This document shows, piece after piece, positions 17,890-51,474 of a stretch of 64,000 nucleotides of DNA. Positions within the stretch are counted from its first letter, which is position 1; each line of letters opens with the position of its first letter. Source of the stretch: an uncultured Poribacteria bacterium (GTDB taxonomy: Bacteria; Poribacteria; WGA-4E; WGA-3G); the NCBI GenBank assembly GCA_951813565.1, contig OX638351.1, positions 224,001 through 288,000 of the forward strand, in the 5' to 3' direction. Under the pieces are notes generated by a model. The model saw only the letters and a list, made by a program, of their open reading frames with translations. It did no database searches and was not told the DNA's origin. Both the position numbers and the translations under genes were made by a program.

Positions 17890-18022
17890 TCCAATGCTTT
17901 CTTCCTGTGAATCAACGCTGAATGCGCTTATGGCATTCAGCGGGAGCGAGCTCCAGCCCGCGACTTTTATTTATTAACGCACTGTACATGATGTTTCACA
18001 TCAATTAGTGAATGGGAACACA

Positions 18023-18496
18023 ATGAAACAAATCCCAAACAGAGGACATCGTCAATTACGAAAAGGCAGATACTCATTACCCGGGGCTTACTATTTCCTG
18101 ACTTTATCCATTATTAACAAAGAACCTATTCTTGCAAATGCCGAGATTGCGGATACTATTTTTGAATCTTTTGAATGGTTAGAATCTAATGAGCGTCTCA
18201 GATGTTTTTGTGTTATTGTGATGCCTAACCATATCCATGCTGTCATCCAATTAAGAAGCGAACAAACCTTATCCAGACTCATGCAATCGTTCAAAAGTTT
18301 CACAGCGAAGCAGATTAACACACAATTAGGACGAAGCGGATCTGTCTGGCAAGAGACTTATTATGAACATGGAATAAGACGAAATGGATCGTTGAATGAA
18401 ACCATTCGATATTGTTATGAAAATCCTGTGAGGAAGGGATTAGTAAAGGAAGCACAGGAGTATCCGTATTGGAGATGTAAGTTCAGGATGGAATGA
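18023..18496 (+). CDS. rayT: REP-associated tyrosine transposase (RAYT)
   Basis: LRKGRYS.PG..YFLT, MPNHIH (HUH), FKSFTA, WQ..YYEH.IR, Y..ENPV.KGL; flanked by inverted REPs. Confidence 0.92.
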   Translation: MKQIPNRGHRQLRKGRYSLPGAYYFLTLSIINKEPILANAEIADTIFESFEWLESNERLRCFCVIVMPNHIHAVIQLRSEQTLSRLMQSFKSFTAKQINTQLGRSGSVWQETYYEHGIRRNGSLNETIRYCYENPVRKGLVKEAQEYPYWRCKFRME

Positions 18497-36918: not shown

Positions 36919-38638
36919 CCTACACTCCGCAGTTGTTTAATCAGATTTTGAGTATTTATGTTATACTCTTTATATCTTGCATATAAGGAGGTAATATCAT
37001 TACTCAACCTACTTTTACAACTCAGCGTTTAGATCACCTCGGCATAGTTGCCGGTGTGTGTGATCGTATTGGCTTGATAGACACGATTGATACTTTTATT
37101 GGTCCAACGAAACGGAAAGTTTCAGTGGGTGAAGCTGTGTCCGCAATGATCTTGAATGCTTTAGGTTTTGTTTCACGCCCTCTCTACTTGACACCAGAGT
37201 TTTTTGAAAATAAACCTGTAGACCTGTTGATCCGTCCTCACCTCTGTGCTGCCGATTTTACGGACGATAGTCTGGGGCGTGCCTTAGATACACTTTATGA
37301 AAATGGGGTCACTGAACTTTTTGCGACGATTGCGTCCAAGGCGTTATCAACATTTGACATAGACCATCGTTTTGTTCATCTGGATAGCACTACTTTTAGT
37401 TTTCATGGGAACTATGATACCGAAACAGATGATGAACACGCGATCCAAATCACTCACGGGTATAGTCGTGATCAGCGCCCTGATCTCAAACAAGTGGTTG
37501 TTCAACTTCTATGTTCTTATCGGTCTCAGTTCCCTGTATGGTTCAAAGCACTTGATGGAAATCAGGCTGATAAAACAAGTTTTCCTGACACGATCCGAGC
37601 GTATCTGGCTCAAATGCGTGGCAGTGATGCGCCCTATTTTGTAGCGGATAGTGCGCTTTATACTGCCCGTAACATTGCTGTGCTCAGTGATGTGCGTTTC
37701 ATTACGCGTGTTCCTGAAACACTCAAAGCTGTCAAAGAACTTTATCAAACTATCTCTACTGAAGATATGCAGCCAGCACCGCTTGAGGGGTATCGTTATC
37801 TTTCGGTGGATAGCAGCTATGGAGATATCCCGCAAAGATGGCTAATTGTTTATTCCGAAGCAGCGTATCATCGTGAAGTGGCGACTTTAGAAAAAAAGAT
37901 TGCCAAAGCACAGACTGTTGCTGAAACATCTCTCAAACGCTTGCGAAATAAATCGTTTGATACCAACTCAGCGGCTGAAGCTGCCGTGTCAGAAATATCC
38001 AAGTCTTGGAAGTATCATAAACCTTGCGTCTCCATTATCTCTGTTCCACATTACACAACATCGGGACGACCGAAAAAAACAGATAACCCCACACACTTTC
38101 GTTATCGTATTGAGGGCGAAGCTGTTGCGAATATAGAAGCGATTGAAAAACTCAAACGCAGCAAAGGCAGATTTGTGTTAGCTACCAATGAGTTAGATAC
38201 AACTTTACTTGACGATGCCACTATTCTTGAAGCCTATAAAGCACAGAACATCTCTGTGGAACGCGGTTTTCGGTTTTTGAAAGACCCTTTATTCTTTGCC
38301 AATAGTCTATATTTAGAAAAACCCCAACGGATCATGGCATTACTGATGGTGATGGGACTTTCGCTACTTGTTTATGCGCTTGCGGAACAATGGGTTCGGT
38401 TGGAATTAGAAAAACAGAAACAAACAATACCCAACCAAGTCGGTAAACCCACGCAAACCCCAACGCTCCGACGCATCTTTCAAATGTTTGAAAATATTGA
38501 CGTATTATTGATAGAACAAAACGATCATATACAACGCACTATCGTAAACCTAAATGTAATACAGTCTAAGATTATCAACATATTAGGAATAGAAGTCAAA
38601 AATGTTTATTTTCCAGATCCATAACTGCGGAGTGTAGG
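36919..38638 (+). mobile_element. IS1634-family insertion sequence
   Basis: 16-bp TIR CCTACACTCCGCAGTT; 6-bp TSD TAACAA. Confidence 0.92.
36999..38624 (+). CDS. IS1634 DDE transposase (start appears to be ATT)
   Basis: LDHLGIVAG, HLDSTTF, GYSRDQRPDLKQ, VADSALY, VERGFRFLK; AAGGAGG 7 nt before ATT. Confidence 0.88.
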   Translation: MTQPTFTTQRLDHLGIVAGVCDRIGLIDTIDTFIGPTKRKVSVGEAVSAMILNALGFVSRPLYLTPEFFENKPVDLLIRPHLCAADFTDDSLGRALDTLYENGVTELFATIASKALSTFDIDHRFVHLDSTTFSFHGNYDTETDDEHAIQITHGYSRDQRPDLKQVVVQLLCSYRSQFPVWFKALDGNQADKTSFPDTIRAYLAQMRGSDAPYFVADSALYTARNIAVLSDVRFITRVPETLKAVKELYQTISTEDMQPAPLEGYRYLSVDSSYGDIPQRWLIVYSEAAYHREVATLEKKIAKAQTVAETSLKRLRNKSFDTNSAAEAAVSEISKSWKYHKPCVSIISVPHYTTSGRPKKTDNPTHFRYRIEGEAVANIEAIEKLKRSKGRFVLATNELDTTLLDDATILEAYKAQNISVERGFRFLKDPLFFANSLYLEKPQRIMALLMVMGLSLLVYALAEQWVRLELEKQKQTIPNQVGKPTQTPTLRRIFQMFENIDVLLIEQNDHIQRTIVNLNVIQSKIINILGIEVKNVYFPDP

Positions 38639-38846
38639 TAACAAGATTTGTACACACCTATTCTTTCTTTGCTACTTGACGAAGGAAGGTTGAACGATGT
38701 GCACTGAACGAAGACGAATACGGGTGGCGACTCACGGGTGCAGAGTTTCAGAGACGACATGAGAAAAACAAAGATACGGAGTATCAAGATGAAAATCCAA
38801 AGCGGTAGTGGAAAAGATATGAGATATTGCTATAATCTTAATAGGA

Positions 38847-39857
38847 ACGTGAGTTTGATAATTAAAAACTGGTAAATAGAGAACCCCTTTGTTATTATGA
38901 AGTATACCAAATACTCACAAAGGAGTTCTCTGATGGATATCATAACACTTTTCTGTAAAATTGACGACTTTTTTCTTTTGTATGAACAATATCAAGCACA
39001 ACACCAGTTGCCAGAAATATCCGGAACAAGCAATACCCGTGGCAGACTTAGGTGTCTTCATCCGAGCGAAGTTATGACAATACTTATTTATTTTCATCAA
39101 CATAAGTGTAAAAACTTCAAAAGCTATTATCAAGAGCATGTCTGTGGCAACCTCCGTTGGGCGTTTCCAAACCTTGTCAGCTATAGTCGGTTTGTGCAGC
39201 TTGCCCAAGAGGTTTTGATGCCGTTGTCTATTCTTCTAAACACCCGTTTCGGTGAATGTAATGGGACTTCCTTCATTGGCTCAACGCCACTTCCAGTTTG
39301 CCATAATCGTCGGATTTCAGCGCATCGTGTCTTCGCTGATGGGGCAGAACGATCCAAAACCTCTATGGGATGGTTCTACGGGTTCAAACTGCATCTCGTC
39401 ATCAACGATCAAGGTGAGTTGTTGTCTGCTATGGTGACACCCGGAAACACAGATGACCGGAAACCTTTGCCACAGTTGACCAAAGGGCTATTTGGCAAAC
39501 TTTATGCCGATAAAGGGTATATCAACAAAAAGCTGCGGGATAAACTGCGGGAAGGGGGTGTGTCACTTGTTTACAAAGTGCGCAAGAACATGAAACCTGA
39601 ACCTTTGTCTCAGGCTGATGCAGCACTTTTACGAAAACGGATGCTCATTGAGTCGGTGAATAAAGAACTCAAAAGTCAGACAGAAGGACAACACACACGG
39701 CATAGAAGTCCTGTTAACTTTCAAGTGAACACAGTTGCTGCCTTGATCGCTTGGACCTGTCTGACGAAGAAACCTTCACTCAAACACAAAGAACTCCAGG
39801 AAAATGACTATCAGTTGCCAATGATATGTAACTTCTAATTATTTATCAAACTCACGT
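38847..39857 (+). mobile_element. IS982-family insertion sequence
   Basis: TIR ACGTGAGTTTGATAA; 8-bp TSD TAATAGGA. Confidence 0.93.
38933..39838 (+). CDS. IS982 transposase, probably inactive
   Basis: SEVMTI, SYSRF, GWFYGFKLH, ADKGY, IES; SFIGST in place of SFIDST. Confidence 0.88.
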   Translation: MDIITLFCKIDDFFLLYEQYQAQHQLPEISGTSNTRGRLRCLHPSEVMTILIYFHQHKCKNFKSYYQEHVCGNLRWAFPNLVSYSRFVQLAQEVLMPLSILLNTRFGECNGTSFIGSTPLPVCHNRRISAHRVFADGAERSKTSMGWFYGFKLHLVINDQGELLSAMVTPGNTDDRKPLPQLTKGLFGKLYADKGYINKKLRDKLREGGVSLVYKVRKNMKPEPLSQADAALLRKRMLIESVNKELKSQTEGQHTRHRSPVNFQVNTVAALIAWTCLTKKPSLKHKELQENDYQLPMICNF

Positions 39858-43597: not shown

Positions 43598-45141
43598 CAT
43601 AGGTGTCAACTTAAGGATTTTCAGCATTCTTTAGTTGCCTGTAATACCAAATTACCCTAAATCGTAGGGGCGGGTCTCTGTGCCCGCCCTTACCATCGGC
43701 AATGAAAACAATGCAATTCTCGTTAATTTGGTATAAGTTGTCCGCTTTCCTGCTCTATGTTTTCCATAGTCGCTGTATCGTCCACCCTGTTTTATGTATC
43801 TAAGTGTTCTATAAAAAGCTGTTTTAGATTTGTGAAAACTCATTGTGAGTGTGCGTGCGTGCCTCCCAATAAGTTTTGCTGTTTTGATGAGATCGTGTCG
43901 CATACATTTCCATCCAGTTGCTAACATAATCCAGTGTCTTATAAGTTGTGCGATGAGTTTGGCGGACACCTCACATAAGGGACGCTCAGGTTTGGTGCTG
44001 CGGGATGTATTCACCTTACCAACGCTTTTGAAGGATTTAAACTCAACTCAACTTGCCATCGTATCCGGGCGATAGTGGCAACCTGTTCGGCGGTAAGTCG
44101 TGTCGTCCCAATATTTGTAATGTAGATGTCCCAACCGGCAAGTTGTAAGCTTGTTTTGAGGGTGTTGTCCATCTCCGTTTAGCATCGCGTCTGATGTTTC
44201 GGCGACGCTTGTTTGCTTCTGGTTCGGAACATCGCAGCGCAACAAGCCGTGCTGACAGACGCTTCTTTGCGCCAACGAAGCAGTTCTGGTCTATAGTGTC
44301 TAAGTTTGTTGCTTTGAGGTGCTTATACAAGCAGAAAGGTTCTCCTTGTTCATCAAAGAGTTTACAGTTTACTTTCAATCTTGTGATCCAAAAGGCACCT
44401 GTTTGTGTCAGTTTTCCAAACGCGTCAAGTGAGAAATAGCTGAGGTCTGCTAAACGTAAACTTCCAGCGGAGAGCGGTTCAAACTCCTTTTCTGCTGTGC
44501 TATCGGCAATGATACCATCAGTGAGTTGGAAGTGTACAAAAGCACCCGTGAGCACATCAAAACGGAGGTGAAGTTTTATGGGAGCTTTTTTATGTTCGGT
44601 TCTACAACCGGTTTCCTTCCAAACGGATCGGAGTTCATCGGGGAGCGCAATCCAAGTGCTGTCCTGCAAATAGACACCTGTGAACTGTTTTAGCAAAGGG
44701 AGTGTCTGCGGTTGTGCCGAAATAACTTGTGTTGCGGCTACTTCAAGCGTTGATTTTAGGGTTTGTGCAGCCTCATAAGTCATCCGTTTTTCAATCGCTT
44801 GACGGGTGACATGCACATCTAAGCGCGTGCTGTTTGTGCCAAATCTGTATAACTTGCATCGGGAGTTTCAAGCCACCCGAATACGAGCATCTGGACGAAA
44901 GCACTTCCGGAAAGTTTGCGTATTCTTTGGACGAACCCGCAACTCAAAGCTGATGCGTTAGCGGTGGTTTGTAGTATCTCTTGCATTTTATCGGAAACCT
45001 ATGTTAGAATAGACATCGGAACACCTCTTTTGTAGGAATAAGTAGAAGTTATTTTCTCCATTATGCAAGAGGTGTCTCCATTTTGCAACGCTTTTCTAAT
45101 ACCTAAAAAGACACATATCTGTTCTTAAGTTGACACCTATG
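43598..45141 (-). mobile_element. IS4-family insertion sequence (decayed)
   Basis: Perfect 18-bp TIR CATAGGTGTCAACTTAAG; REP hairpin 20-mers on both flanks. Confidence 0.88.
43735..45016 (-). pseudogene. IS4 transposase pseudogene
   Basis: LQDST.IALP, KLHLRFD, LADLSYF fragments; in-frame TAG at codon 6, frameshifts, MITE in the 3' end. Confidence 0.85.
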
Positions 45142-45321: not shown

Positions 45322-45663
45322 TTGAAAATGCGTCCTTTTTTTGTATCGTTATCAATCTTAACAAGTATTATAGGTCTCATCTTTATCATGCGTGGTTGTG
45401 TACATCCTGCAAAATATCAGAAGGAGTTATCTAAGGAAACACCAACTGCAGTTAGAGTAACCCAAATTTACACTGAGGCCACTCATCTTGTTGTAGTCGG
45501 TATCGGGGTTGTTAGTTTAGGGATACTGATAGTTTTTATCGGGACACTTACCCGCATTGATGAATGGAAAAATCTGTATTCACGCTTAATAGGTAAAACT
45601 ACGAAGAATTCAATAGTTGCGGATGAACCTGAAACTTCACAGCGTGAGGAGAACGAAAATTGA
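45322..45663 (+). CDS. hypothetical membrane protein
   Basis: Two TM segments; overlaps the yggS start. Confidence 0.65.
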   Translation: MKMRPFFVSLSILTSIIGLIFIMRGCVHPAKYQKELSKETPTAVRVTQIYTEATHLVVVGIGVVSLGILIVFIGTLTRIDEWKNLYSRLIGKTTKNSIVADEPETSQREENEN

Positions 45664-46376
45664 ATCGGATTGTTGAAAACCTTGCGAATGTCAAGGAACG
45701 TATGGCGGCATCTGCAGAACGAAGTGGTCGCGCACCGGATTCAATTAAGCTTGTTACGGTTACAAAAGGACGTTCAATAACAAATATTCAAACAGTCCTT
45801 GCTGCTGGGGCGACAGATATTGGTGAAAACCGTGTGCAGGAAGCACAGCAAAAATTCGACCTAATTCAATCGTTTTGTGAAACAGTACCAAACATTCAAG
45901 CATGTGAATGGCACCTTGTAGGACACCTTCAAAGAAATAAAGTTAAGTCTGCCTTAGATATGTTTACGCTAATCCACTCAGTGGATAGTTTGAGACTTTT
46001 AGCAGAGATAGCACGGCGGGCAGAAGCACGTAAGCAACAAACAGAAATACTAATTCAAATAAATACAACTGGCGAAGCAAGCAAGTTTGGTATAGATTCG
46101 GAGGATGTGCGGGATTTTATAGAAAAGTCGCTTACCTATTCAGGCGCACGTATTGTTGGGTTAATGACAATGGGAGTATTAAGTTCTTCCCCAGAAATAA
46201 ATCGCCCAGCTTTTGCTCTGCTGAGAACACTTTCGGAAAAGGTAAAGGCTGAGAAGTTTCCCGGAATAACAATGGAGTACCTCTCCATGGGGATGACAAA
46301 CGATTTTGAGGTAGCAATCGAAGAAGGAGCGAACCTTGTTAGGATAGGTAGGGCAATTTTCGGAAACGCAGGTTAA
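45660..46376 (+). CDS. yggS: PLP homeostasis protein YggS
   Basis: VTK, GENRVQE, WH.VGHLQRNK, LSMGMTNDFE.AIEEG...RIG. Confidence 0.95.
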   Translation: MNRIVENLANVKERMAASAERSGRAPDSIKLVTVTKGRSITNIQTVLAAGATDIGENRVQEAQQKFDLIQSFCETVPNIQACEWHLVGHLQRNKVKSALDMFTLIHSVDSLRLLAEIARRAEARKQQTEILIQINTTGEASKFGIDSEDVRDFIEKSLTYSGARIVGLMTMGVLSSSPEINRPAFALLRTLSEKVKAEKFPGITMEYLSMGMTNDFEVAIEEGANLVRIGRAIFGNAG

Positions 46377-46514
46377 TAGAATAGTACTTACGCACTTTGC
46401 TTATTTTCGGTTTTATTTATCGTGAGATCCAATTTATTGCGTGATTACTGATGAAGTTAAAACAATTGATATAAATCTGTTCTCATTAACGCTGTGGATA
46501 TTGTGAGGAGTAAA

Positions 46515-47333
46515 ATGGTGGTAGACAACCTAAAATTGGGTGTGATTGGTGTCGGAAAGATGGGCGGTATACTCGTAAGGAGTATCGTTGGACGCTTGTT
46601 TCCAGCGCAACAAATTTGGATTACCGATCTGGACAAAAATCTGGTTAACCAACTCTGTGATGAAAAAGGTGTGAACGCTACGTCAAACATTGAGGAACTT
46701 ATCAAAAAGACAGATATTATCCTCTGTGCCGTTCCACCCGTGGCGGTACCGCACATTCTACCACAGGTATCACACAGTCTCTCATCACCACAATGGATTA
46801 TAAGCATCGCAGCTGGCGTCGCGACTGAAACGCTCGAATCATATTTTAAAACCCCGCCTCCAATTGTTCGCGTGATGCCAAATATAGCAGCTTCGGTTGA
46901 AGCGGCAATCTCTGTGTTGACAGCAGGCAGTGCTGCTGATGAGCAACATCTCGCCATAGCGCAAAAGGTATTCAACACTTGCGGAACTACATTAATATTG
47001 GAGGAACGACACCTAAATGCGGTTACAGGAGTCAGCGGCAGTGGTCCTGCTTATGTTGCGCTTTTTATAGAAGCATTAGCAGATGCCGGTGTCCATGTCG
47101 GTTTGCCACGGCAAGACGCGCAAACTTTGGCGATACACACAGTTTTGGGTGCAGCTTCAATGTTAGCACAATCCCAAGAACATCCTGCTGTCCTGAAAAA
47201 CCGAGTCACAACACCGGGCGGGACAACAGCTGCAGGACTCCACGCACTTGAACGAGGTGGTTTGCGCGCAACACTTGCCGAGGCAATACTTGCTGCAACG
47301 GAACGTGCCAAACAACTTGACACGGTAAAATAG
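46515..47333 (+). CDS. proC: pyrroline-5-carboxylate reductase
   Basis: GVGKMG, RVMPN, SGSGPAY, VTTPGGTT. Confidence 0.95.
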   Translation: MVVDNLKLGVIGVGKMGGILVRSIVGRLFPAQQIWITDLDKNLVNQLCDEKGVNATSNIEELIKKTDIILCAVPPVAVPHILPQVSHSLSSPQWIISIAAGVATETLESYFKTPPPIVRVMPNIAASVEAAISVLTAGSAADEQHLAIAQKVFNTCGTTLILEERHLNAVTGVSGSGPAYVALFIEALADAGVHVGLPRQDAQTLAIHTVLGAASMLAQSQEHPAVLKNRVTTPGGTTAAGLHALERGGLRATLAEAILAATERAKQLDTVK

Positions 47334-47679: not shown

Positions 47680-50283
47680 ATGACCACTTGCTTTATGAAA
47701 AAGGCAAATTCTTCCCCAAAGGACACTACAGTTAAACGTTCCAGTACTAAATCTAAGAAAAAGAAGTTAAACTCAGTTCAGACTGAGGACGTTTTACATA
47801 GTTCCCACGAAGCAGAAATTCTTAAATTGTGGACAACTCAAAATGTCTACAAGGTTGAAGAAAAAAATGCCGTGTCGCCAACCTATGTGATCAGAGAAAT
47901 GCCAACGCCTGTGGATGCACTAAGCCTTGACACACTTCGAAGAAAAATTTATCAAGATATTTTCCTCAAATGTGAAATGCTCCGGGGACGTAGTGTTGTA
48001 TATTCGCCGTTTTGGGAAACCTTTCCCTTTAGCGTTGAAGCGACCGTAATAAAAGAAAAAATGGCTACAGTTTCAGGAAATATCATCAATTTTCGAAAGC
48101 AGTGTAGACAACTTTACAGTGAACAATTAAAAACGCAAGAACAGAAATTACAGAAACTCGGTATTTTTGCAGATTGGACTTCCGCTGAAAAAACATTGGA
48201 GGCACGTCATGAGACTAAACTCTTTAGCTACTTTGATAGATTACGAGACACTAAATTCTTACGTGATGAATTGAAACTCAGCCATTGGTGTCCAAAATGT
48301 GCTTCACCGTTGGAAACAGGAAAAACAGTTACACCGGTTTCCAATAGCGTTTTAGATACCTATGTAAAGTTTCCACTCAACAGCGGTTTTGAAGAATTTG
48401 GAAAAGATGTCTTTTTCGTTGCGCGTTTTCCACTGTCTCAATTGTGGCGGATTGCAGGAATGATCGCAATGGGAATTTTTGAAAATGCCACCTTTTTACT
48501 CACCGAATTTGAAAACCAATATCTAATTTTTTCTGAACAGCAATTGAAAAAATTTGTTGATCCAAACACTAAACGTAAGAAATATCCTGTACCTATTGGG
48601 AAATTAAAAGCAACACAGTTTAACAATTGTACTGTCTCACACCCGCTATTCTCACTAACTGATCTACCTTTTTATTCATTACCAGAAAAAATAGTTGGAA
48701 CCATTTCTGATTCATCACAAAAAAAGGAATTGATGGAGGGCATCATACCTCTAAACCCTGCACATCATTTGCTTAGTTATAGTATTTCCAATGTGTTAGC
48801 AAGCATTGATAACTCTGCCAAAGCAAAATTTATATCATCTACTCCAACAACACCCATTTTTGATGAAACTGGCAGGTTTACAGAAGATGCGGATGCCTTA
48901 TGCGGATTAAAATTGTCTAACGCGATTCAACTTATTACTGATGAATTAGAGAATCGTGGGGGCTTAATTAAAGGAAGAAAACATAAAATAAAACAACTTG
49001 AATGTCAACACTGTAATGGTTTGTCAGTTTCGCGTCCTTACAGGCACTGGGTATTTTCCATTACCTCCAGCAATATTCAAGAAGATGTCTCAAATTTACC
49101 AGAATATTGGGCGCATTACGACGACGAAATACGGGGGGACATTCAAAGTGAAATGATGAATGCCTCCGATATGCCAATTTCTTCGCAACGCCAATGGGGA
49201 ATACCGCTCCCAATTCTGATGTGTGATAGTTGCAACAATATTATTACAGATAAAAAAACGCTTCGGGCAGTTCGTAGTTCTATCCGACGCGGTTCGGAAC
49301 ACTGGTTCCGTCTGAGCGTAGAAGAACTATTACCCGCAGATACGGTCTGCATACATTGCCATTCAAAGGACTTCCGAAAAGAGGCTACTTACATTGAAAG
49401 TCATTTTGCTAACCTACTTCAGGCACTTGATACATCAGATTTCAAAAAACCAATTATTGGGTCTTGCACGAATGTTACTTTTGCACCCCGTGCCGCTTTC
49501 TTAAAATGGTTAAGAGAGTTGAGTGTGCTTTCAGCATCACTTCAACTGAGTCGACCTACTAAAGAGAGCCAACCCTTTAAATTCTTAAAACTAAACAGTA
49601 TTGCTGAAGAAGTTTGGGACACCGTGATAGAAGAAAATTTGTATAAAAAATATCCTGCGGATGTTCTACGCCTAATCTCAATAGTGCCAGACTTACATCA
49701 AGTTCAACTTAAAGAAGATGACACTAAACAACTTGAAGAGTTGATAGAGGTGTACAATCAAAAATACGGACAACTTAAAGAGGTATTAAATCAGGCAGTC
49801 CAATTGCTATCTGATCTGCAGAATAGGACTAATTCTAATAAACGTATGACCACCTCTAATAAACCTGACGCGAATGTTTGTGAAATATTATTGAAACATG
49901 ACGCACTTGCCATTTCTTTGACTAATCAACTTCTCAGCAGTGTTGAGGCAGCTTACACAGAAAGAGATTTTTATGGTATGTGGCAATTATTATTAGATTT
50001 CTGTCGTACAGATCTTCAATTTTATATCGAATTTTGTGCTGCGAAAAAAGTAGCTAAAGGGGTAGTCTCTGCACAACTTGCTTTTTCATCAATATTCACA
50101 GCCATTTTACAATATCTTGCTCCGATTACTCCTTTCTTAGCTGAAGAAATTTTTGTTCAGACAAATTCCGCTTTCACCAGCATATTTCAAAGTAAGAGGA
50201 GTCAATTACCAAAAATCTCTCAGCAATTTGATACAAAGGTTGAATGGGAGTCGTTAAAGAATAGCTATCAACCAAAAACCTAA
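47680..50283 (+). CDS. degenerate isoleucyl-tRNA-synthetase-like protein (catalytic motifs lost)
   Basis: LGIFADW, ISSQRQWGIPLP, YPADVLRL, LAPITPFLAEEI and four CxxC pairs retained; HIGH and KMSKS absent; lies between yggT and lspA. Confidence 0.85.
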   Translation: MTTCFMKKANSSPKDTTVKRSSTKSKKKKLNSVQTEDVLHSSHEAEILKLWTTQNVYKVEEKNAVSPTYVIREMPTPVDALSLDTLRRKIYQDIFLKCEMLRGRSVVYSPFWETFPFSVEATVIKEKMATVSGNIINFRKQCRQLYSEQLKTQEQKLQKLGIFADWTSAEKTLEARHETKLFSYFDRLRDTKFLRDELKLSHWCPKCASPLETGKTVTPVSNSVLDTYVKFPLNSGFEEFGKDVFFVARFPLSQLWRIAGMIAMGIFENATFLLTEFENQYLIFSEQQLKKFVDPNTKRKKYPVPIGKLKATQFNNCTVSHPLFSLTDLPFYSLPEKIVGTISDSSQKKELMEGIIPLNPAHHLLSYSISNVLASIDNSAKAKFISSTPTTPIFDETGRFTEDADALCGLKLSNAIQLITDELENRGGLIKGRKHKIKQLECQHCNGLSVSRPYRHWVFSITSSNIQEDVSNLPEYWAHYDDEIRGDIQSEMMNASDMPISSQRQWGIPLPILMCDSCNNIITDKKTLRAVRSSIRRGSEHWFRLSVEELLPADTVCIHCHSKDFRKEATYIESHFANLLQALDTSDFKKPIIGSCTNVTFAPRAAFLKWLRELSVLSASLQLSRPTKESQPFKFLKLNSIAEEVWDTVIEENLYKKYPADVLRLISIVPDLHQVQLKEDDTKQLEELIEVYNQKYGQLKEVLNQAVQLLSDLQNRTNSNKRMTTSNKPDANVCEILLKHDALAISLTNQLLSSVEAAYTERDFYGMWQLLLDFCRTDLQFYIEFCAAKKVAKGVVSAQLAFSSIFTAILQYLAPITPFLAEEIFVQTNSAFTSIFQSKRSQLPKISQQFDTKVEWESLKNSYQPKT

Positions 50284-50305: not shown

Positions 50306-50800
50306 GTGATTTCTCCGTTTCAATATTTTAAAAATGTTCTGCCATTAATAGTGGTAGCAATTCCATCATTGTTACTTGATATCGTTACCAAATGGCTGGT
50401 ACGTATGCATATCCCTAAAGGGAGAGGCTATTCAATTATTCAAGGCTTTTTTAATTTAAGGCATGATAGAAACTCTGGTGCTGCTTTCGGAATTTTATCA
50501 GATCAGCGGACGTTGTTAGTTATAATAACGATCGCTGCATTGATCTTTATTTTCGTCTATTCTTTCAGATTCAGACAGAGTCGATGGATGCAAACCGCGT
50601 TAGGTTTTCTCCTTGGTGGAGCAGTAGGAAACTTTATTGACCGTCTTTTTTTAGGTGAAGTTGTCGACTTTCTGCAGTTTGGTATAGAAAGCAAAAATTT
50701 GTATTGGCCCACTTTTAACGTCGCTGATGTGTCTGTATGTATAGGCGCGGGGATGCTCATCGTTTATCTGTTTCGTATTCAGAATCGGAGCACTAATTGA
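50306..50800 (+). CDS. lspA: lipoprotein signal peptidase II
   Basis: NSGAAFG, GGAVGNFIDR, VVDF, FNVAD. Confidence 0.95.
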   Translation: MISPFQYFKNVLPLIVVAIPSLLLDIVTKWLVRMHIPKGRGYSIIQGFFNLRHDRNSGAAFGILSDQRTLLVIITIAALIFIFVYSFRFRQSRWMQTALGFLLGGAVGNFIDRLFLGEVVDFLQFGIESKNLYWPTFNVADVSVCIGAGMLIVYLFRIQNRSTN

Positions 50801-50889
50801 GGTAGTAGATGTAGGTTGGGTAGAGCGTAGCGAAACCCATCTCTTTGTCCTTTTTCGTAGGACTTTCACAAAAAGCAAAAGGGTAAACC

Positions 50890-51474
50890 ATGTTTAAATT
50901 TAGAATTCGTATATATGTGGTCGCGTTAGCAGTAATTTTCGCATTAGTACCGCAATCAGAAGCGCAAAATCGAAGTGTTCCCCCTACAGAGCAAACTCAA
51001 GGAACACAACAAGAGGAATATAGCGAAAGTGCTTTACGTCGATTTGAGATTGTTACGTTAAGCGCACTCCCCTTCACCGCAGTCCATAGTTATTTGGGGG
51101 TTCGCGGTATAAAAATGGCACAAACAAATAAAATAGCACCAGAGTTAACACCACAGAATTACCGTGTAATGGGGATCACTGCTGTTTCGTTATCACTATT
51201 TATCGGTTTTTGGGACTGGCTACATACCCGTAATGTAGACAGGTCAGCTCCGAGTGTGCCAGAACGCAAGCCACCATCATCTCCTACTGAAGAAGGGATT
51301 CCTCCAGATGGGAGTATTGCTCGTATTCCTATTTTCGGTCCACATGCAAACATATACGGTATCTCAACATATTTTCCGCAACAACAACTATACTCAGTAA
51401 ATAACCAGTTGAATATGTGGTCAGCTGAACCATCTGTCGGCTTTGTTATTCCACTCCTTGAAATACGATTCTAA
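50890..51474 (+). CDS. hypothetical exported/membrane protein
   Basis: Signal peptide; LRRFEIV...LPF motif. Confidence 0.7.
   Translation: MFKFRIRIYVVALAVIFALVPQSEAQNRSVPPTEQTQGTQQEEYSESALRRFEIVTLSALPFTAVHSYLGVRGIKMAQTNKIAPELTPQNYRVMGITAVSLSLFIGFWDWLHTRNVDRSAPSVPERKPPSSPTEEGIPPDGSIARIPIFGPHANIYGISTYFPQQQLYSVNNQLNMWSAEPSVGFVIPLLEIRF

Follow-up and report, generated by a model that had tools for sequence, protein, structure and literature searches.

We analyzed a 64,000-nucleotide stretch of DNA from an uncultured, sponge-type Poribacteria bacterium (GenBank assembly GCA_951813565.1, contig OX638351.1, positions 224,001 to 288,000 of the forward strand; hereafter "the window"), in which a gene resembling ileS, the gene for isoleucyl-tRNA synthetase (IleRS), lies between yggT and lspA. 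A first-pass annotation made from the sequence alone had described an uninterrupted open reading frame (ORF) of 867 amino acids at this site. The frame is real: positions 47680..50283 of the + strand form a single unbroken frame of 867 codons, and the region is covered by contigs from three independent assemblies with 0-2 differences and 0 indels, although some of the three DNA runs behind these contigs may be the source of this DNA. The two single-nucleotide differences among the spanning contigs are Q149R and one silent change. The translation matches the tRNA-synt_1 and Anticodon_1 domains, its closest solved structures by sequence are type-1 IleRS (IleRS1), and it scores 165 bits with the NCBIfam ileS model, which does not reach the cut-off of 621. 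Met6 (47695) is invariant across the family alignment, and one orthologous locus (L010) has a stop codon four codons upstream of it. The true start is probably this Met6, and the product would then have 862 amino acids, because Met6 is common to the orthologues.

Loss of catalytic, editing and tRNA-reading residues

Residues were compared between 38 family rows (28 Poribacteria loci plus 10 unnamed proteins placed by tree) and 36 motif-complete active IleRS1. A second control set of 89 active IleRS1, picked from 119 matches, brings the two control sets together to 125. At 137 columns, at least 90% of the 36 active enzymes agree; of these columns the family keeps 36, keeps 21 in part and has lost 80, and those kept are chiefly Trp, Gly and Pro. 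Motif loss extends to all 28 Poribacteria loci and all 10 unnamed clade members aligned. The former GPPY...HIGH loop (47896..47934; like all features of this gene, on the + strand) now reads EMPTPVDALSLDT, and the H82 and G84 columns of HIGH are kept in 0/38 rows. EGSDQ.RGWF has become APRAAFLKWL (49483..49512), and the KMSKS motif, absent from every family row displayed, has given way here to a loop reading LKLNSIAEEVWDTVI (49585..49629). The isoleucine/ribose pocket (GPPY, GWD, the Trp of DVWFDSG, EGSDQ) is lost too, with the pocket Trp remaining in 1/38 rows and the GWD Asp in 11/38. The substrate contacts of HIGH, KMSKS, GPPY, the pocket Trp and EGSDQ are described in PMC7191050. The former catalytic motif positions vary freely from orthologue to orthologue, and a motif pattern search over 77 named loci returned one chance match only, HVGQ. 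The family shows no gain of basic residues around the HIGH loop, a point against a rewired active site.

The editing site has fared similarly. WTTTPWT has become RFPLSQLWR (48424..48450), with the editing threonines lost throughout the family, and in the former GTG.VH.AP.HG..DY motif (48739..48780) the conserved Asp, presumably catalytic, is Ser in this protein and survives in 22/38 family rows. These replacements, in the synthetic as in the editing motifs, are as the first-pass annotation had stated them, and by every motif examined the protein is catalytically dead.

The residues with which IleRS reads A35 and U36 of the anticodon have been named (10.64898/2026.02.03.703510), the C-terminal zinc-binding domain reads G34 (PMC11685878), and three arginines contact the tRNA 3' end (PMC7955072). 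By an alignment-based mapping of columns onto the published A35/U36 readers, the equivalents N701 and K787 are kept in 4/38 and 10/38 family rows, and R700 in 10/38, versus 35-36 of the 36 active IleRS1. The anticodon helix has gone from a charge of +3.0 to +0.1. The helical bundle of the anticodon domain (49750..50199) persists in fold, as had been claimed, but not in its recognition residues. The G34-reading zinc domain is absent from this protein and is kept in the deepest Poribacteria branch, the other class of the phylum, where the catalytic motifs are lost as well. As for the arginines facing the tRNA 3' end (CCA), the R504 equivalent is kept in 79% of rows, and those of R495 and R502 are lost or variable. 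Canonical recognition of tRNA-Ile is unlikely, because the anticodon readers, the G34 domain and two of the three CCA-end arginines are gone.

A synthetase fold with ancestral zinc sites

A first AlphaFold model, from an alignment of 26 family sequences, left parts of CP1 unresolved. A second, with 68 family and 30 active IleRS1 sequences in the alignment, gave a predicted local distance difference test score (pLDDT) of 87.8 and a predicted template modelling score (pTM) of 0.88. Structure prediction, a check that the first-pass annotation had proposed, thus points to an IleRS fold that has been kept: the second model aligns with 1qu3 at Z 26.7 and a root-mean-square deviation of 7.6 over 749 residues, and IleRS1 supplies the best structural as well as the best sequence matches in the PDB. 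The model alignment stops at residue 809-824 of the 917-residue Staphylococcus aureus IleRS, leaving ~100 C-terminal residues unaccounted for, and the junction and zinc domains are therefore largely missing. The annotation was right that the C-terminal zinc finger is gone, but the loss is larger than it supposed and takes in most of the junction domain. At the other end, the Lys/Ser-rich N-terminus (47695..47829) is predicted to be disordered, and the ratio of nonsynonymous to synonymous substitution rates (dN/dS) over amino acids 1-40 is 0.39. It is Lys-rich as described, but not a simple addition, as ~45 residues stand in place of the canonical ~30-residue IleRS1 N-terminal peptide; among the genera examined, it is confined to this genome's own genus.

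All four CxxC pairs that had been noted are present. C204/C207 (48289..48300) and C442/C445 (49003..49014) belong to the CP-core zinc site, and C515/518 and C557/560 form a second site in the CP3 subdomain (49171..49434; we follow PMC7191050 and PMC7955072 for the name CP3). The CP3 cysteines occur in 38/38 family rows and the CP-core cysteines in 36/38. Because 86-89 of the 89 active IleRS1 have the same cysteines, the zinc sites are ancestral and probably structural, and we therefore do not read their retention as evidence for a new function. Searches of the ESM Atlas with the whole protein matched only class Ia synthetase clusters, and with CP3 alone returned nothing at 0.9 or above. A search for stand-alone CP3 proteins gave 8 matches, each a piece of a family member at 66-83% identity.

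Selection on the reading frame

The first-pass annotation had argued that a frame so divergent and yet free of stops must be under selection, and comparison across loci agrees. At each of the 77 named loci the gene is one ORF, 822-957 codons long from stop to stop (one is cut by a contig end), and neutral simulation at 0.31 substitutions per site introduced stops in 500/500 runs. By the Nei-Gojobori method, the 43 of 378 pairs with synonymous divergence (dS) below 1, which are not independent of one another, have a median dN/dS of 0.19 (range 0.15-0.50). Pooled over 10 non-overlapping pairs, dN/dS is 0.20 for the dead ileS, 0.07 for the type-2 enzyme described below (IleRS2), 0.12 for proC and 0.18 for yggT; lspA gives 0.10 (9 pairs). 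By region (11 pairs), CP3 is lowest at 0.09 and the CP-core end follows at 0.14, and the anticodon domain, at 0.26, is among the least constrained. With no stops or frameshifts and a dN/dS of about 0.2, the dead ileS is under purifying selection and is not a decaying pseudogene.

The working IleRS2 and its leader

A second, functional ileS had been predicted elsewhere in the genome, and it exists. An intact IleRS of type-2 size at G000:C1:1669137-1672280 (1047 amino acids from its ATG) carries GVHH, WTTTPWT and KMSKS. Candidates for ValRS, LeuRS, MetRS and CysRS are present too, and this is the one intact IleRS in the genome, so IleRS2 most likely does the isoleucine charging. Across the phylum, 163 of 176 genomes have an IleRS above the cut-off. 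Unbroken full-length enzymes among the matches listed measure 992-1192 amino acids, with none of IleRS1 size (14 matches fall outside that set). Every Poribacteria IleRS2 whose motif was displayed has GVHH, and there are two subtypes, of about 1050 and of 1120-1190 amino acids. In IleRS2, GXHH is the variant associated with hyper-resistance to mupirocin; IleRS1 is intolerant of the swap from HXGH to GXHH (PMC10485003).

Upstream of ileS2 lies a leader ORF (G000:C1:1668750-1668960), found at 21/21 same-genus loci with a length of 28-58 codons and an isoleucine run at its end (…RIIIAIRRAVVG); in this genome it precedes a GC-rich hairpin and a run of T. The arrangement would likely serve as an isoleucine-sensing attenuator. 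No such Ile-rich leader ORF was seen at 6 ileS2 loci of other families, and in 9 loci around the dead ileS and ileS2 no Rfam family was found at E up to 0.1 and no T-box was detected. Run on the whole genome, ARAGORN reported a selenocysteine tRNA and a second, permuted transfer-messenger RNA call that overlaps tRNA-Ala at C1:593527-594166 and is probably spurious.

Distribution and origin in Poribacteria

The 77 named loci comprise 73 labelled Poribacteria and 4 labelled "uncultured bacterium." In a profile search, 155 of 176 phylum genomes had the gene. With a broader profile, and counting best E-values below 1e-100, so did 134 of the 150 genomes of at least 90% completeness, across both classes and at 2.2-2.9 kb; genomes with weak profile matches (G025, G087, G043) were scored as lacking it. 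The Poribacteria family makes up one side of a fully supported tree branch. Since both classes lack the catalytic motifs and the family forms this single branch, inactivation would predate the common ancestor of the sampled phylum.

Several candidate correlates of the gene's presence were tried and rejected. TilS is present in 5/5 genomes, with and without the dead ileS. The IleRS2 subtype does not follow loss, as genus g6 keeps the gene together with a divergent IleRS2 and G025, without the gene, has the common one. In deeper families divIVA sits between the yggT region and the dead ileS, immediately 5' of the latter, and PF05103 was found in 1 deeper genome and not found in 4 tested genomes of this order; two of these four keep the dead ileS, and divIVA is thus no obligatory partner.

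Putative new conserved surfaces

Some putative surfaces of the protein have been remodeled in the family at the level of sequence. A CP3 helix (49255..49290) has gained a basic stripe consisting of K526, R529, R532, R536 and R537, and residues 526-538 show the largest basic shift in the protein, with a net charge of +3.3 versus -0.7 in the 36 active IleRS1 and -0.6 in the 89 further ones. R176/K180 (48205..48219) are basic in 35/38 family rows, and R176 is basic in 8 of the 89 active IleRS1. Finally, the editing domain opens with a G-x-E-x-x-G loop (48385..48402) that is invariant in 38/38 rows, and its glutamate, E238, occurs in 0/89 active enzymes.

Neighbouring genes and other features of the window

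The dead ileS is flanked by conserved genes, all on the + strand. Upstream are two ancestral neighbours, a yggS-type gene for a pyridoxal phosphate-binding protein (45660..46376) and proC (46494..47333), and then yggT (PF02325; 47350..47619). Downstream, lspA (PF01252, signal peptidase II; 50306..50800) starts 22 bases 3' of the dead ileS and is followed by a gene for a 194-amino-acid protein without a Pfam family (50890..51474). This protein has a conserved ESALRRFEI core and lies directly 3' of lspA across Poribacteria, the other class included, even where the dead ileS is deleted. A 113-amino-acid membrane-type ORF (45322-45663) overlaps the yggS start and is found also in another genus of the same family (L192). 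Between lspA and the next gene, a short repeated element (50805-50846) is matched by many other contigs of the same runs. The promoter count around the operon is at chance level (18 vs 17.6), as is the terminator count (7 vs 6.2).

The first-pass annotation spoke of a window full of pseudogenes. A spot check of 18 ORFs found four transposases, one of which (44043-44816) has only part of the DDE domain, followed by a second short ORF. Transposases of DDE and IS200 types lie at 37056-39838, 43652-44816 and 18008-18496.

Other dead IleRS1 lineages

Further IleRS1 with degraded motifs came up in the profile search, one named as Armatimonadota and one as Bacillota. Those outside the Poribacteria clade include P0022, P0042, P0050, P0055, P0056, P0065, P0088, P0090, P0108 and P0148, most of which keep the C-terminal zinc finger, and P0162-P0165 show graded erosion of KMSKS with HLGH intact. 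When close relatives were sampled sparsely, the approximately unbiased (AU) test did not reject a common origin with the Armatimonadota-type group (p-AU 0.55). Once motif-retaining close relatives were added, the union was rejected (p-AU 4e-32; quick tree, LG+G4, 30 rows), and the Armatimonadota-type dead group nests among these relatives. On these two grounds, the Armatimonadota-type lineage lost catalysis independently of Poribacteria. A metagenome scan with the Armatimonadota protein found 6 loci, of which the 4 distinct translated ones keep the motifs; a locus of the dead lineage was not seen among them.

One rather speculative and, in our judgment, doubtful generalization is that IleRS1 has an old second function beyond the reach of IleRS2, so that ileS1 would tend to survive as a pseudoenzyme after an IleRS2 takeover. 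Such survival would have occurred independently in Poribacteria and the Armatimonadota-type lineage, and perhaps in further unnamed clades. If so, the old function could contribute to the retention of ileS1 in all Bacillaceae, and the Poribacteria protein would isolate it on the CP3 surface. Against a shared function, the other dead lineages lack the basic CP3 stripe, and coexistence with IleRS2 is known here for Poribacteria only.

Interpretation

We suggest that the gene is the ancestral type-1 ileS, which stayed at the yggS-proC-yggT-(divIVA)-ileS-lspA locus once isoleucine charging had passed to a type-2 IleRS, an event older than the last common ancestor of the sampled Poribacteria. At the level of sequence, the old tRNA-facing charges of the anticodon helix, the KMSKS loop and the CCA-end arginines have been erased while a basic stripe has arisen on the zinc-stabilized CP3 helix and on R176; the invariant G-x-E-x-x-G loop would be a second contact. 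The dead IleRS1 would on this account be a non-catalytic scaffold that binds a putative polyanion through CP3, most plausibly a structured RNA, and we give this reading a probability of roughly 45%. Such an RNA could be the tRNA backbone, bound with no specificity for isoleucine, or rRNA, or some other RNA. The first-pass annotation had proposed tRNA/RNA binding or scaffolding. Binding of RNA or scaffolding through a new surface may well stand, but binding of tRNA-Ile by way of the anticodon domain is not supported: most of its A35/U36 readers are lost, the G34-reading domain is absent, and the domain is among the least constrained parts, with the strongest constraint falling on CP3 and the CP core.

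A number of observations weigh against the scaffold reading. The four closest pairs (dS below 0.15) have dN/dS of 0.36-0.50, and the better AlphaFold model relied on the 30 active IleRS1 in its alignment, with pLDDT at 73.8 without them. The gene has been deleted in two lineages, family f2 and genus g3 (f3-g3). K180 and R532 are basic in 44/89 and 30/89 active enzymes, and 15 other motif-degraded IleRS1 have no stripe (net -0.5). The stripe could also predate inactivation, as no active Poribacteria IleRS1 exists as a control. Acidic residues have been gained as well (E238, D405, E422, E424, E548, D554, D564, E568), and the stripe may therefore pair within the protein or with another protein.

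This last point leads to the alternative that the same pseudoenzyme uses its surfaces to bind protein, either as an adaptor or regulatory subunit, much as HisZ is a regulatory subunit for HisG, or as a homo-oligomer in which acidic residues of the editing domain contact the basic helix of CP3. The basic patches and the acidic ones arose together, and the invariant G-x-E-x-x-G loop is acidic, unlike an RNA-binding surface. No neighbour, however, tracks the dead ileS: divIVA is missing from four tested genomes of the order, two of which keep the gene, and yggT, lspA and the 194-amino-acid neighbour persist where it is deleted. We regard a protein-binding role as possible, though less than probable. 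It is unlikely, in our view, that the gene is a functionless relic whose frame stays open to avoid polarity on the essential lspA, with selection against misfolding as the source of the constraint. Such a relic would explain why the deletions in f2 and f3-g3 are clean (in three genomes of these lineages yggT and lspA are still close, with no remnant between them), why dN/dS is three times that of IleRS2, and why the retained ancestral residues are mostly structural; GC content at third codon positions is also in the bottom 2% of long ORFs, though equally low in the neighbours fmt and PASTA. Yet deletion is evidently viable, and 134 of 150 genomes in both classes nonetheless retain 2.2-2.9 kb of this gene, with newly invariant polar surface residues (E238, 38/38 vs 0/89) and a constraint on CP3 equal to that on lspA (0.09 vs 0.10).

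A canonical tRNA-Ile binder, acting as a chaperone, sensor or trans-editing factor in the manner of LeuRS-I or halobacterial LeuRS2, seems still somewhat less likely. The whole architecture has been kept, the equivalent of the A76-phosphate arginine R504 persists in most rows, the editing Asp survives in over half of them, and TilS and CAT-anticodon tRNAs are present. These points are opposed by the loss of most A35/U36 readers, by the absence of the G34-reading zinc domain outside the deepest branch, by the lost or variable R495 and R502 equivalents, and by an editing site without its threonine-rich motif and, here, with Ser for Asp; feedback, moreover, could already be supplied by the Ile-rich leader of ileS2. 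We consider a zinc store or thiol-redox sensor very improbable, since the near-invariance of its two four-cysteine sites is shared by the active IleRS1 and part of the CP-core site is lost in some f4 members. A working synthetase with a rewired active site is hardly credible. The fold and locus are those of IleRS1, and non-canonical HIGH motifs do exist in IleRS2 (PMC10485003), but here all substrate-contacting motifs have been lost together and vary freely among orthologues, the HIGH loop shows no compensating basic gain, the intact IleRS2 is present, and even replacing HXGH with GXHH is more than IleRS1 tolerates (PMC10485003).

Whichever role applies, the protein is a phylum-wide class Ia pseudo-synthetase, neither an active IleRS nor a decaying pseudogene, and it shows what marks synthetase pseudoenzymes in general: a fold kept, catalytic residues lost, and purifying selection. 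As a natural separation-of-function mutant, it makes roles of IleRS besides charging testable with one soluble protein and a few residues. A practical consequence is that annotation is apt to label dead ileS genes as isoleucine--tRNA ligase.

Comparison with known systems

Non-catalytic class II synthetase folds with known protein partners include SLIMP and the accessory subunit of polymerase gamma. Most of the known non-catalytic descendants of synthetases belong to class II or still bind tRNA; the case described here is a full-size class Ia enzyme that a whole phylum has retained in dead form. We found no published description of a dead IleRS1 in Poribacteria, in literature mostly outside subscription journals. 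The available part of a review gives only IleRS2 and SbzA for IleRS (PMC9437257). A database of 96,219 IleRS sequences has been built from GTDB (10.64898/2026.02.03.703510), and the main text of that report contains neither "Poribacteria" nor "inactive," though its supplements may list these proteins.

The closest comparison is with the bacterial type-1 IleRS themselves (Priestia megaterium 8c9e/8c9f, S. aureus 1ffy/1qu2/1qu3; TIGR00392), with which the dead protein shares domain order, two zinc sites and the ancestral locus. It differs in having no HIGH, KMSKS, pocket, editing motifs or anticodon readers, in the ~100 C-terminal residues it lacks, and in its new basic CP3 helix. The presence of both ileS types in one genome recalls the IleRS1 and IleRS2 pairs of Bacillaceae, which Zanki et al. 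found together only in that family among 278 IleRS (10.1101/2022.02.09.479832). In those pairs, however, both members work, with IleRS1 in the housekeeping role, whereas in Poribacteria IleRS2 is the only intact enzyme, and the published view of one ileS type per bacterium outside Bacillaceae needs qualification.

Among other synthetase descendants, LeuRS-I of Sulfolobaceae and LeuRS2 of Halobacteria are likewise full-length duplicates of class Ia that aminoacylate little or not at all and that selection has kept (PMC9437257), and like them the dead IleRS1 coexists with a cognate synthetase, the intact IleRS2. LeuRS-I and LeuRS2 nevertheless keep tRNA binding, and LeuRS-I makes leucyl-adenylate, whereas in the dead IleRS1 both the adenylation site and the canonical tRNA readers are gone. 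HisZ (listed in PMC9437257) is another case of a synthetase fold reused without catalysis, although it is a class II protein with a known protein partner and ours belongs to class Ia. SbzA of SB-203207 biosynthesis, finally, is an IleRS-derived protein with a non-translational role, as may be the case here, but it is a catalytic isoleucyl transferase (PMC9437257), and the dead IleRS1 sits in a housekeeping locus without catalytic motifs.

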